Source of the DNA: Saccostrea echinata
Taxonomy: Eukaryota
Direction of reading: 5' to 3'
Length of the DNA: 64,000 nucleotides
Assembly: GCF_033153115.1 (NCBI RefSeq)
Contig: NW_026889786.1
Location: 2,480,001 to 2,544,000, forward strand
A program made the position numbers and the translations under genes. The stretch's first letter is position 1, and each line of letters starts with the position of its first letter. Shown here in pieces: positions 35,504 through 51,376 of the stretch. Under the pieces are notes generated by a model. It was not told the origin of the DNA. It saw only the letters and a list, made by a program, of their open reading frames with translations, and searched no databases.

Positions 35504-35696
35504 TTAAACTGAATGTTTATGGCGCACACCGAATATTCCTCATTTCACAGTCAAGATAATCAATACTTTTAATATTAATATTGCATGTTCTTTGTAAAAT
35601 CAGTATTCAAAGAAAGTGAAGACTTGGTACTTTCAAGGATAAAGGTTTATTATAAAATTGTAACCCTTTCCGTTGATAATAGTTTTCAGGAAATGG

Positions 35697-36006
35697 TTAT
35701 CCAAACACGCCAAGTATGTCAGATCTTTCGACACAAATAAAAGAAACTTCAAATATTTGTTGACACCGACACATGGTTCCCCAAAAATGCTGTTATCAGC
35801 AGACAGTCTACAGTGTCTGTAACCGTTACAGGACCACTTGGCATGCTCTGTGGATGAATGTGACTGACATCGAAGAGAACCAAGGTTACGTGAAGGACAG
35901 ATTTCATCAGTGGTTCTTCCATATACAGCAGAGATTATTCGGATTAGCTTCCTTGCTTCACACATAATGTAACCCGTCTGTCCTTCACACAACACAAATG
36001 ACTGCC
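35697..36006 (-). pseudogene. SUEL lectin terminal exon of copy A with a 1-nt deletion after KYL
   Basis: 87/102 aa identical to the copy B lectin once frame-corrected (hand count). TTG-AA-GTT versus TTG-GAG-GTT at ~35749 moves the last Cys out of frame, which is why the ORF track runs on to 35633. Confidence 0.88.
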
Positions 36007-36041
36007 CTAGAAATAAATTCTGAAATCTTAAGACGTATTAA

Positions 36042-36339
36042 GGTCAGACGACACGTTCCTTAATAATATATGATTTTCCCTAAGAATTTGTCATTAAAGT
36101 ATTGCTTCGTCCGCAAGTTTACTCACAAAAAATGGGTTCCTTACAAGACTTTTGTGCAAGATACCAGAATATGATGTTTCCTATATAATTCTATTGGAAA
36201 TCACTTGAATTGACAATATAATAACTTTTGGCGTATTTCTTTTTTTGGGACATTTTGAAAAATAGATTATATATTAATTAATATTTTCTATATATTACGA
36301 AGAGATATTGGAGATATTTGAGGAACGTGTCGTTTAACC
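36042..36339. mobile_element. Kolobok-like MITE just upstream of the copy A lectin acceptor
   Basis: TTAA|GGTCAGACGACACGTTCCT ... AGGAACGTGTCGTTTAACC|TTAA. Confidence 0.8.
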
Positions 36340-36398
36340 TTAATTAAAGTTTTACCAAATGCATCTTAGATGAACTTCATTTGAAAATTAGTTCAGAC

Positions 36399-46578: not shown

Positions 46579-46676
46579 AGTACTATGTGGGAAAGAATAC
46601 AACGTAGTACGATTTAACACTTTGGAGTACTATGTGGGAAAGAATACAACGTAGTACGATTTAACACTTTGGAGTA
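46579..46676. repeat. Perfect 47-bp tandem duplication
   Basis: AGTACTATGTGGGAAAGAATACAACGTAGTACGATTTAACACTTTGG x2. Confidence 0.95.
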
Positions 46677-48316
46677 ATTAATAAGCGATAATTAATGCGG
46701 TCGTTTATGTAAATCACACATCGCCACAGAACACCAGACTGACCGGATGTGCCTCGAGGATGACTTGCAAAATGAAATATCATTCCCGAATTCACTTTCG
46801 ATGATGTAGGATTTTTTTTAGGAATGTTTGCTTTTTAGCATATATAGTGATAAAGTGCTGAAAAAGCTTTAAAATATCATTGTACTTCAAAGCATCGATT
46901 CATAAAAGAGAATCAAAGCCTTATAAAAACTTTATACTGTACAAAGTTCAATATACGGATAGTCTTTCTTTTGGATTTTAACCGATACATCATGTTCGTA
47001 TCGAGGAAAGAACCTCACACGAATACTAGTATTTCGAGGTTCTGATAAGCACAGATACCCATAACTACATTCATAGTAAATTGTACCGGGGTTGTAGACA
47101 GGGAATGATTAATTTAAACAATATTTTATTATGTAAAATCATAAAAGGATTGGACAGCAGGCCCTGCCTATATAAGCCCTCTCCATAATGGATGATTACT
47201 CCTCCATGGCACCCGATCCCACCTCTGATGTTTTTAGAGGTTCGTGTTTTCTCTGCTCCAAATTTGTGTTGTATCAGTAGACTTTTGAGATTGATTACTG
47301 TTCGTTATCATATTTCATTGTCAAACCTGAAGTACATACCATTCAGAACACTTTCTTTGATTTCCTGTGTATTACTGCCTGTCTCTGTTTGGATTATCGG
47401 AGGAAAATTAGAAGCGAACGTATTACCTAAAAATAGGGAGAGCCAGATCATACCAATTAACATAATCCATGTAAATGATAATTCATATTCTTGCAAATTT
47501 TGTTATATATGTACATGTGTATCTATAAACTACATGGTGTATAGGTAGTTTTCGATAGACGCTATTTTAAGAGTTTTTTTCCGTTGACCGCCATATTGGA
47601 GGTCATCATGCCCAGTTTCCTTTATTATTCAACCAATTTAAAATTGCCATACTTGATATTCAGGTGAAGATAACGCTATTTTTTTCCTGACAAATATACG
47701 TTTGGTAAAGCTTCCTTTAATTCAGTAATTTAGAATTGTAAAGATTTTTTCCTTTATATTTCTGCCATACATGCTTAAAAATCAGTTGCTCAAAGAGGAA
47801 AATGCACCGGTTTGACCTTCCAGATGGCGACCAAAGAGAAAATACGTCATGCCAAAACTTTCTATTGAAAAGAAATAAATCAATTATATTTTTTGCATAT
47901 TCATAAACTGATATAGTAACTAGCTAGTATTTGGTGCATTGTGCATAGCATCATTTATTATTTTTAAATTGTTATCATGTAAAGATGAAAACATTCAGCA
48001 AATACTGCACAATAATAAAAGAGCTGCAAAATTTCCCATTCTCGCCATACTGTAACAAGCAGGATCATGGAATCCACCAAAAGACTGTACGAAATAAATT
48101 TAAGACTCGTCAAAAGGAACTTTTTATGAGATCAAAAATGACGTGGCATTTTCAGAGTAAAAAAAAATAAGAAATAAGATTATACTTGCATCTGTATTTG
48201 GATAGATGGAATGAGTTCCCAATTAACCCTAACAAAAGTAATTTATCTGTATTAAACTATCACGGGAATCCAGTGATAAGACTATGATGTTTAATGTGAG
48301 GCTGAGGGTCATCCTA

Positions 48317-49857
48317 CACTGTAAAAAATGTGTTTACAATTCAAACACTTTTCTAAACACTTTGTTGTCACCTCCTTTTTTATATGTTTAATTCCTAAAC
48401 ATGTAAAATTTCTAAACATATCTCAGAAAGTGTTTAGAATTTAAACACTTTTGTGCTTAGAAATTAAACATATCTAAACACATAAACACAAGTGTTAAAA
48501 TTCTAAACACATAACAGCAGAAGTGTTTAATATCTAAACACATAAGTATAATTTGTACCTGCAGAAAAACAAAACACTCAAATTTAGGCACAAAAAATAT
48601 ATGTTTTTTCAATGCGAATAATTGTCAAAATTTTCAAAAATATGTAACGATATTAATAATTTTCAATAAAGCCACTGAACGTTGGGATTTGTATTTAATT
48701 ATTCAATACAATGGACACTGTGCAATGTACTTAATTTACACAAATAATGTAGGAGATGGAACTGAATAGATTTGATTAGTCTCAACAATTCAATCAGAAT
48801 GACACATAATTTATAATGTACACATGGATAACAAATTTTTAATCTTCAAAATTATTAAGAAAAAAATATTAAGCTGACAATTTAATGTCAAAACTTCATT
48901 GAATATATCTAAAAGCCTTTATTAAAGAATTTTTAAATTAAAAATACAAAATGTATATTTATATATATATTTATTATAATAATTATAATTTGAATCGGCT
49001 GCAGAGTTTTCCTCATGTCAATCACAAAAATATCAAATTTTATTAACTTTCAGCAAGTCCCAAAGCACCACATAATATAATCTATATATCCCATCAATAA
49101 CTACCAGAAAGTAACCCAATTCGAATGCACGAGGATAATTGTAAACATTGTCGAATTAACTCAGTAATCTTCACAAAATGAAGTTTCAAAGTGTTGATTA
49201 TGGAACAACAAAATTGCACTTGGAGATGACACCAGGTACTCTGATACGTGTATTTTGAGTTCGATCTGGACTACAGTACCTGTAGGAAAGAAAGCCAGAT
49301 TGTAGTAAAAGTACAATGCCACTGATATTTTATATTAGTTAAAAAAAAATTGTTCAAGTTTTATTGAAACTATACTGATATAAATATAGATGTTTTTAAT
49401 GACATTTAATATTATTTCCTCTCCTGTAAGTCTATGAACGAGTTCAAGATATCCCAAGTCAACTTTATTTACGTTGCTCATCGTGGTTAATTAATGCAAA
49501 GAAAAAGAAAACAAACCTTTAATGTATTGCAGTAATAAGATGCCCTTTCACGTATTTCATTATTTCGCCATGGTTATCCCTTGAATTGGGTTGTCATAAC
49601 TCACATTGGTACATCACCTTATAGCTTGTTGTGTTTTCTTTGTTTAGATAGCCGCTCAAATTAACGTTCAAATATATGTGTGTCATTTCCGGGAAGATAA
49701 CTCTGCACTTTACAGTAAAACATGTTTAATTTCTAAACGCATTTAGATATAAAACATGTTAAGACATAAGTGTTTAGTTGTTAAATACAATACTATACAC
49801 GTTTAGATCTAAACATGTAATAGAAGTGTTTATTTCCTAAACACAATTTTTACAGTG
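48317..49857. mobile_element. CACTA/EnSpm-like non-autonomous element upstream of copy A
   Basis: TA|CACTGTAAAAA ... TTTTTACAGTG|TA, with many subterminal TAAACAC/GTGTTTA repeats at both ends. Confidence 0.8.
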
Positions 49858-51065
49858 TACAAATGCATAATACAATCAAGCCTACCTTACAAATTGAAAT
49901 GATAAAATTAATGCAAGATTTGTGAAATGTATCCCAACAGAATTGAGCCATGTCTTACCTTTTAACACTAGAGACATGGGCTGATAAGGATATTGAACTA
50001 GTCATGAGGTGCATTTTGTCATGTGTTGAGTCAAAGGAAGAAAAGTTAAAGACATGTCCTATGTCTGAAGTTAATAAAAAAAAAAACAAAAAACAGTTGC
50101 TCAAGGAAAGAAAAATATTGATTGCTTTCATATATCGCCTTACCTGAAACATGAAAATATTACATATTTCAATTAAGTAAAAGATAATGTTAATTTTAAT
50201 TGATTTTTACCTGTCGTTATTTCCGATACATGTATATGTGATATCTCTATCTCTTTTTAGAATTATTGCTCCTTTAAATGAAAAATGAAAATGAAAATTA
50301 CTTTTTATTTTTGAATGATGCATTCATATAATGTCATATCTGTTAGACTTTTTACGACAAAGGTAGATTTTGTCACCCTTATTCGGAAATACTATTAAAT
50401 AGATTGTTCGTATTCTTTAATATCATAAGTTTCATAAAAACACCTTTAACATAGATAAATATTAATTCTTAAACCTTATAAATTTCTTAATACAATATAA
50501 AACTTGATTTTCTGCTGGTTCATAAACCTATATCTGAATTTTTACATCATACAAAAATTAATAAAAAGTATGTTATGGTACACATTTTCATATCTGACAA
50601 CTTATTTTATAAAAGCACCCCTTATAAAAATTAATTTTACTATACCTAGTTGACATAACAATACGTGTAAGGTCGACTGTTAAAAATGTTAATTTACTCT
50701 CCTCGGCTGGGCAACGTGGTGTTTATCTATTTATTAAAACAAAAACCACCCAGTCTGACAAAAACGTCACTAATCAGCAATTTTATGGACAACCCTATTA
50801 TGCGTGATTCAAATCATCAGAGTTGATGCAACCAATGCATTACATGGTATGCTTTCAATCTAAATGAAGTACCTTGCACTTTATTTAAAACTGAAAGCTT
50901 GTGATGCACATTAAATTGTTGCCATATAGTTACAAAGTCAATACTTTAATATTCTTTGTATAGTCAATACTAAAAGGAAGTAAAGAATAGACACACCAAG
51001 GATGAAATTTTATTGCAATATTTGAAAAAGAGTCCTTTTCATTTTGAATGGTTTCCATAGAGAGA

Positions 51066-51376
51066 TTATCCAAATATGCCAAGTATATCGGATCGGTCGA
51101 CACAATGAAAAGAAACCTCCAAATATTTGTCGACACCGACACATGGTTCCCCAAAAATGCTGCTATCAGCAGACAATCTACAGCGTCTGTAACCGTTACA
51201 GGACCACTTAGCACGGTCTGTGGATGAGTGTGACTGACATCTAAGAGAACCAAGGTTACTTGAAGGACAAATGTCATTAGTGGTTCTTCCATATACGGCA
51301 GAGATAATTCGGATTAGCTTCCCTACTTCACACTGAATGTAACCCGCTTGTCCTTCACACAACACAAATGATTGTC
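51066..51376 (-). CDS. SUEL / Gal_Lectin (rhamnose-binding lectin) terminal exon of copy B
   Basis: LCEG...C...IRIISAVYGRT...ICP...C...CNG...C...SIFGEPCVGVDKYLEVSFHC: 8 Cys plus YGR, (D/E)PC and KYL motifs. Confidence 0.93.

Follow-up and report, generated by a model that had tools for sequence, protein, structure and literature searches.

SUEL/rhamnose-binding lectin (RBL) proteins, such as the latrophilin RBL, EVA-1 and the salmon lectin CSL3 (PDB 2zx0), carry a PF02140 domain with eight cysteines and the YGR and KY motifs (background on the family: PMC8350385). A domain of this kind is encoded by gene B, which lies together with pseudogene A on the minus strand of a 64-kb stretch of the Saccostrea echinata genome (contig NW_026889786.1), here called the window. 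The lectin domain of B shares these features with the known SUEL proteins, and its best PDB matches reached E values of 6e-15 to 4e-15 per domain. Unlike in the known proteins, it stands at the C-terminus of six extracellular cadherin (EC) repeats without a membrane anchor. None of the SUEL-bearing Atlas clusters among those listed (nine of ten rows were SUEL-bearing) contained a cadherin family too.

By its cadherin part, B resembles invertebrate membrane cadherins of the CDHR type, called 'cadherin-23-like' in databases (P0048, P0052, P0066, P0055), with which it shares the N-terminal series of EC repeats and the exon borders; the names are automatic and imply no orthology to vertebrate CDH23. 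Unlike these cadherins, B stops after EC6, and the lectin replaces the further repeats, the helix and the tail. One of them, P0048 (XP_061191820, 1764 aa), is the product of S. echinata gene C. Gene C encodes a membrane cadherin in which the helix and tail follow further EC repeats, as read in four oyster orthologue models (S. echinata, S. cucullata and two of M. gigas), and a hydrophobic helix was found near the C-terminus of all four proteins (score 3.0-3.3). In trees composed of bivalve rows only, B and C form a sister pair relative to the conserved bivalve gene P0066/P0055, which was set as the outgroup.

In the clustered protocadherins of fugu and zebrafish, regional conversion homogenises EC4-6, while EC2-3 stay diverse (PMC1852091). 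Like the fugu genes, oyster B and C appear to be tandem paralogues that have been homogenised over some EC domains in a lineage-specific manner. Unlike in fish, the oyster tract comprises EC1-2, and the two genes that share it encode a membrane cadherin and a cadherin-lectin without an anchor, with ~40% identity over EC3-6. Chimeric pseudogenes arising from unequal crossing-over in tandem arrays are also well known, and A appears to be an ordinary product of this kind, with mosaic ancestry, switches at homologous introns and reciprocal products nearby. The usual crossing-over chimeras differ from A in one respect: its junction between EC8 and the lectin brings non-homologous sequences together, for which a deletion or insertion event is required.

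The most probable account of the locus is that B encodes a conserved oyster protein of six EC repeats and a SUEL domain, anchorless and predicted to be secreted, and that A is a broken patchwork, the likely outcome of unequal crossing-over and a deletion within the tandem array to which B and C both belong. The 793-aa protein of gene B (P0001) comprises six EC repeats (PF00028, 219.7 bits), a linker and the lectin. Four of the five calcium linkers conform to the DxNDxxP type or nearly so; the linker between EC4 and EC5 is degenerate in all four B proteins checked. The transmembrane helix and cytoplasmic tail that mark a membrane cadherin are absent from B; beyond the N-terminus, no 19-residue window exceeded a hydropathy of 1.6 in any of the five B proteins examined. 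The B protein is predicted to be secreted. An 822-aa form of B is encoded whole on Logan contigs of 2.6-2.7 kb, which implies a spliced B mRNA. Mapping of four runs presumed to be RNA, at 80% likeness and dominated by repeats, yielded pieces of B bounded by exon borders, at 52135-52380 (one differing letter) and at 51096-51375 (two).

The fusion of EC6, linker and SUEL domain is common to six species of oyster, which belong to the four genera Saccostrea, Ostrea, Crassostrea and Magallana. Orthologues of B with cadherin and PF02140 domains were found in S. cucullata, C. virginica, O. edulis, M. gigas and M. angulata, and the EC6-linker-lectin junction is the same in those that were read. A search with the B lectin exon among longer proteins gave eight matches from 50 candidates, seven of which belong to both the cadherin and SUEL families. 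When the EC6-lectin part was used as a query against the 50% library, both domains occurred together in two of the best 150 of 2969 matches, both from oysters. The cadherin-SUEL fusion looks oyster-wide and, on limited sampling, oyster-restricted. The initial annotation had taken the lectin of B for a young cassette. It is old instead, because the EC6-linker-SUEL join is common to all four genera; the origin of the Ostreidae is placed at ~255 million years ago (as cited in PMC10543319). No paper on an oyster cadherin-SUEL protein or its accessions was found in the literature, where supplementary tables of oyster proteome and transcriptome papers could list B generically. PMC5549309 mentions cadherin and SUEL domains separately. 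Neither the architecture of B nor the exchange of EC1-2 between B and C was found in print, and B carries generic names in databases.

Against a PF02140 cut-off of 31.4, the lectin of B scored 66.4 bits, its orthologues 64.6-67.5 and the 5' part of the A lectin 61.6. The eight cysteines are all conserved in A and in the six aligned B lectins, and the loop-2 Lys of the KY motif is present in seven of seven lectins. The position after the first cysteine is more variable, being Glu in A and in both Saccostrea B lectins and Gln in C. virginica, O. edulis, M. gigas and P0033. In latrophilin this Glu is needed for sugar binding, the E42Q substitution lowering the affinity for rhamnose from a Kd of 1.8 to 141 mM (PMC2430599). 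With Glu in Saccostrea and Gln elsewhere, the B lectin may plausibly bind sugar in Saccostrea, whereas such binding is doubtful for the three remaining genera. The residue concerned is lectin residue 7 of B (51356-51354), and its distribution, with Glu only in Saccostrea and Gln in Crassostrea, Magallana and Ostrea, may reflect a gain or a repeated loss of binding. B is likely a putative soluble adaptor, the EC repeats of which would bind cells or matrix, while a galactose/rhamnose-type lectin at the other end would bind a glycan or protein ligand.

Pseudogene A consists of three layers, namely old C-type sequence (EC3-5a), young C-type sequence (EC5b to the first part of EC8) and the B-type lectin exon with its 3' untranslated region (UTR) (Table 1). 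Its likeness to C, a third gene outside the window, had escaped the initial annotation. A is colinear with P0048 over residues 6-32 and 220-881 and ends inside EC8 on C's own exon border; no close match to the remainder of C was found within the window. Identity to C rises from 71% before residue 484 to 89% after it (Fisher p = 1.8e-9), and the C genes of S. echinata and S. cucullata show no step at this residue (81% and 80%, p = 0.69). The EC7 exon of A is 90% identical to P0048, 83% to P0049 of S. cucullata and 56-57% to the two M. gigas proteins. EC5b-6 of A is sister to S. echinata C (99/98), and the approximately unbiased (AU) test rejects the grouping of the species pair for EC5b-8 (p = 0.014). 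The old layer has a long branch (0.32 vs 0.08-0.09). In every segment tree the cadherin of A falls within the C clade, and it has EC7-8, which B is without. The cadherin part of A, which had been regarded as an old paralogue of its own, is on these grounds a Saccostrea-level copy of C. No C orthologues beyond the four oyster proteins were recovered among the best 120 of 1078 matches, and none for O. edulis or C. virginica.

The lectin exon is a different matter. In a self-comparison by blastn, the coding DNA of A and B matches only once, 35585-36013 pairing with 50949-51383 (82%). Read across the one-base deletion in A near 35750, the two lectin exons are identical at 86 of 101 residues, which agrees with the ~85% first reported (the original count, 87/102, includes the broken codon). 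They differ at 31 of 305 aligned bases (proportion of synonymous differences, pS, 0.18; synonymous divergence, dS, 0.21; nonsynonymous divergence, dN, 0.08). The likeness extends, as had been observed, into the 3' UTR, for ~200 bases, with a score of 94 reached by 0 of 200 shuffles; the UTRs are ~70% identical with indels. All eight homologous pairs of cadherin exons that were compared are 28-54% identical, well in line with the rough 25-55% estimated by eye, and are saturated at synonymous sites (pS 0.72-0.84; 35 of 47 four-fold sites differ). The 246-nt pair 39426-39181 and 52381-52136, for instance, is identical in 23 of 84 columns. A lectin dS of 0.21 against saturated EC exons excludes a plain duplication of A and B. 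In the tree, lectin A is nested inside Saccostrea (100/99; AU p = 0.0015 vs placement outside). A is indeed a chimera, in which a copy of the B lectin exon follows another cadherin and is attached at another EC position, and the donor at 38013 and the acceptor at 36006 are, as reported, both phase 1. A retrocopy origin of the A lectin is unsupported, with no match of the linker exon in the junction intron.

A is a pseudogene, broken at eight places that were overlooked at first, one of them within the lectin exon. Five lesions fall in the old layer: an additional base in the A run 45151-45146, stop codons at 44791-44789 (TAA) and 42963-42961 (TAG), an acceptor AT for AG at 42435-42434 and a donor AT for GT at 42271-42270. 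The young layer has one stop (TAA, 39917-39915), and the lectin exon has lost one base. In addition, no exons remain for the rest of EC1 and for EC2, and the phases on either side of this gap are mismatched; tblastn with four N-terminal queries and blastn found no exon match in 45401-50900. The first exon (47463-47340) still has a hydrophobic, signal-peptide-like start, an assignment based on visual inspection and on similarity to the N-terminus of O. edulis. Five of the six point lesions in the cadherin part lie in the old layer (binomial p = 0.039), and this excess suggests that the older part was dead before the younger one arrived. No open frame with intact splice sites, as expected of a functional chimeric gene, is left. 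The modular route from membrane cadherins to secreted lectins that had been envisaged for the locus therefore finds no evidence in A, and B stands as one old instance of it.

Within the searches made, no intact orthologue was found to join lectin A to cadherin A: a SUEL domain occurred in none of the 25 matches to the EC7 exon of A, and the four C orthologue models reach a transmembrane helix. An intact orthologue with the EC8-lectin junction was likewise absent from the matches listed for other species, although word-based searches can miss proteins. No joint between 38013 and 36006 was listed in the repeat-swamped mapping of the presumed RNA runs. The same mapping produced one piece over the EC7 exon of A that differs at 26 of 440 letters, as would be expected of a paralogue such as C; the low coverage of the A exons was given no weight. 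No dating of the layers follows from comparing 26/440 with the 31/305 of the lectin (overall p = 0.036; p = 0.20 with bounded synonymous counts).

A mirror image of A is provided by gene E (P0301, XP_061191818). E is C-type through EC5a (229/263, 87% to C), then B-type through EC5b-EC6 and the linker (148/166, 89% to B), and it switches from C to B at the intron of C residue 484, which is also the layer boundary of A. The model of E has no lectin and closes with an exon similar to the one that opens the coding sequence of C and A; this closing exon may be part of the following gene, possibly B, the model of which has no signal peptide. E holds a B-type piece absent from A, and A holds the lectin absent from E; on account of this complementarity, unequal crossing-over in a C-B array followed by deletion is preferred over the insertion of a lone cassette. 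The genes of P0001, P0048 and P0301 presumably lie on one S. echinata scaffold. Indirectly, B and C appear to be neighbours, as their accessions are two or three numbers apart (XP_062589500 and -502 in S. cucullata; XP_034311819/20 and -822/23 in M. gigas). A second, independent mosaic was noticed in the same array of M. gigas, where P0051 and P0052 are 94-98% identical from EC3 to about EC11 and differ at both ends, P0051 having a B-like tip and an ancestral tail and P0052 its own tip and tail.

The following course of events would account for these observations. At an early stage of oyster evolution, the membrane cadherin may have yielded a copy that was cut after EC6 and capped by a lectin exon, giving rise to B beside C. 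The C-B block would then have been duplicated in Saccostrea, with crossovers at homologous introns, chiefly that of C residue 484, producing E and A. A deletion from the EC8 intron of a C-type copy to a point just upstream of a B-type lectin exon would have brought the two together. The 5' part was probably already dead by then, so an EC8-lectin protein was probably never made, and the junction is likely a deletion scar that never yielded protein. Conversion or crossover would keep EC1-2 of B and C alike.

Other explanations were considered. A might once have been a working EC-SUEL fusion, an exon-shuffling product that decayed only recently. Its donor and acceptor are compatible, a start and a signal-like exon of its own are present, only one lesion each is found in the young layer and in the lectin, and the lectin retains eight cysteines, the binding Glu and a dN/dS of 0.39. 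We regard this as unlikely: phases would agree by chance in roughly one case out of three, and the two sites are borders taken over from C and B; EC8 is interrupted at the junction, ahead of its final strand and linker; decay has gone much further in the 5' layer, in both branch length and lesions; and no intact C-type cadherin with a SUEL domain appeared among the eight lectin-exon matches, the 25 EC7 matches or the best 150 representatives. It is still less likely that the lectin exon and UTR alone (~540 bases) entered an intron of a decaying C copy, through a mobile element for instance, with no duplication of a block including B. The likeness to B does stop ~20 bases upstream of the exon and ~200 past the stop codon, and repeats lie on both sides of the lectin copy. 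Such a transfer leaves unexplained the mirror chimera E, which has exactly the B-type EC5b-6-linker segment and is without the lectin, and a UTR that is already ~70% identical with indels makes the loss of flank likeness expected. That A or its lesions are an artefact of assembly (a misjoined second haplotype or consensus errors) is very improbable. The window does contain runs of N, with a short duplicated exon end beside one of them, and one frameshift lies within a homopolymer. Five lesions are substitutions, three nonsense and two at splice sites, which argues against assembly error since they are not indel errors; a protein divergence of 11-29% and the dS of the lectin are too high for alleles, and B, in the same window, is open throughout where readable. 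The duplication of a single cadherin-lectin gene, with the lectin under stronger constraint or converted later, would fit the lectin being the most similar part of A and B. With synonymous sites differing as well, and with a cadherin that groups with C throughout and has repeats absent from B, this explanation is refuted and retains next to no probability.

A number of points weigh against crossing-over and deletion as the origin of A. The eight cysteines, the binding Glu and the dN/dS of the lectin pair indicate that the A lectin was under constraint for part of its history. The B-derived likeness around it is confined to those ~540 bases, from ~20 bases before the exon to ~200 past the stop codon, so the window alone cannot separate crossing-over and deletion from cassette insertion, and a stretch of this length would be equally compatible with a short insertion and with a deletion. 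When the last intron of B, its linker exon and the intron before that exon were aligned to the junction intron of A, their scores were reached by 134/200, 151/200 and 97/100 shuffles, none of them significant. For the downstream flanks of A and B the score was reached by 4/30 shuffles, and no likeness further downstream was found. The order of events relative to the split between S. echinata and S. cucullata may be either one, both for lectin A (AU p = 0.24) and for the B-type part of E (AU p = 0.15), and alternative placements of the old layer were not rejected (AU p = 0.07-0.13). The order C-E-B-A and the breakpoints derive from database records and accession numbers rather than scaffold DNA, and the C, E and M. 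gigas proteins are automatic gene models. The matching of the tips described below was tested in two genera, C orthologues of O. edulis and C. virginica not having been found. Unequal crossing-over with deletion nevertheless remains the account favoured by the complementary structures of A and E.

The first two EC repeats of B and C have a history distinct from the rest. S. echinata B and C are 85-87% identical in EC1-2 vs 41% in EC3-5. In M. gigas, B and P0051, a C orthologue by its tail, are 88% identical in EC1, 85% in EC2 and 36% in EC3-5. Between the species, EC1-2 are only 45-62% identical (B to P0008, C to P0052). The trees of EC1-2 group the sequences by genus or subfamily (99/97 and 98/99 under LG+G; 88/90 for Saccostrea under a mixture model), and the AU test rejects their grouping by gene, that is, by orthologue (p = 5.6e-5). 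EC3-5a groups by gene (B 99/97, C 92/92), and for EC5b-6 the B rows fall into a single clade (100/99) that excludes every C row. In EC1-2, B and C combine the two marks of concerted evolution, lineage grouping of the converted tract and by-gene grouping of its flanks. The EC1-2 exons of B and C are not identical, so the two gene models do not draw on a single set of exons. It may be that conversion merely persists where the likeness stayed highest; selection for matched tips is no more than a possibility. In two genera, independently of each other, EC1-2 of B appears to have been homogenised with that of the adjacent membrane cadherin, in a region opposite to that of the fish protocadherins.

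If matched tips are selected, B would directly link cadherin adhesion with glycan recognition in oyster epithelia. A wider picture can be drawn only tentatively, and we consider it rather doubtful: a two-part adhesion locus of oysters, composed of membrane-bound C and secreted B, whose EC1-2 tips would be kept matched by recurrent conversion under selection, with B docking on C and its lectin decorating epithelia. Crossing-over in the array would make new combinations of tip, stalk and tail (E, A and the M. gigas mosaics), some of them functional, and gastropod cadherin-C1q proteins would be a parallel invention. Long gastropod cadherins with C1q domains and no membrane helix by hydropathy are P0187 and P0202 of Pomacea canaliculata and P0095 of Nucella lapillus, a possible parallel to the cadherin-SUEL proteins. 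The claim of a young lectin cassette on two old genes reduces to a pseudogene, and the interest of the locus rests on B and on the matching of its tip with C; the three chimeras show how such domain fusions arise.

Table 1. Coordinates of the features of gene B and pseudogene A within the 64-kb window of S. echinata.
Feature	Position	Strand	Remarks
B exons EC1-EC2	60478..64000	minus	Gene start beyond window end; 71/84 and 71/82 identical to P0048 (C)
B exons EC3-EC6	52136..60368	minus	100% matches to P0001; open where readable; N runs 55656-55469, 53836-53583
B linker exon	51543..51633	minus	91 nt, phase 1 at end
B terminal SUEL/rhamnose-binding lectin exon	51066..51376	minus	Intact; 8 Cys, Glu after first Cys, loop-2 Lys
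B 3' UTR	50870..51065	minus	Homologous to A 3' UTR; AATAAA at 51014
A first coding exon	47340..47463	minus	Own ATG; start of EC1, 63% to C residues 6-32; phase 1 at end
A gap (rest of EC1 and EC2 expected)	45401..47339	minus	No exon found; flanking phases 1 then 0, incompatible
A old layer, EC3-EC5a, C-type	41949..45400	minus	182/258 identical to C; five lesions
A intron at C residue 484, boundary of old and young layers	40057..41948	minus	High-copy repeat ~40200-41500; E switches at same intron
A young layer, EC5b to partial EC8	38013..40056	minus	352/394 identical to C; one stop; end at C residue 881, C's own exon border
A junction intron between C-derived and B-derived DNA	36007..38012	minus	146-bp tandem repeat 36521-37320
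A lectin exon copy	35697..36006	minus	One-base deletion near 35750; dS 0.21 to B
A 3' UTR copy	35490..35696	minus	AATAAA at 35651; likeness to B ends here, beside high-copy repeat

Several minor features of the window were also recorded. On the plus strand, at ~3800-32816, a multi-exon gene of a serine/threonine kinase with a PDZ domain lies tail to tail with A; from the likeness of its translations we take it to be a MAST kinase. Tandem repeats were found in introns at 36521-37320 (unit of 146 bases), 40502-40901 (174) and 58506-59443 (164). The first two, located in the two junction introns of A, were high-copy in the read mapping, which covered 35000-53560. The segment 55714-55657, just before a run of N, is an 85% copy of the end of B exon 56191-56131; it arose by local duplication of the exon or is an artefact of scaffolding. 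An intron of B contains an open frame of 136 codons (61402-60995), which we assume, from its likeness, to be the end of a retroelement reverse transcriptase. A decayed, inverted relative of this frame lies in an intron of A at 43989-43579.

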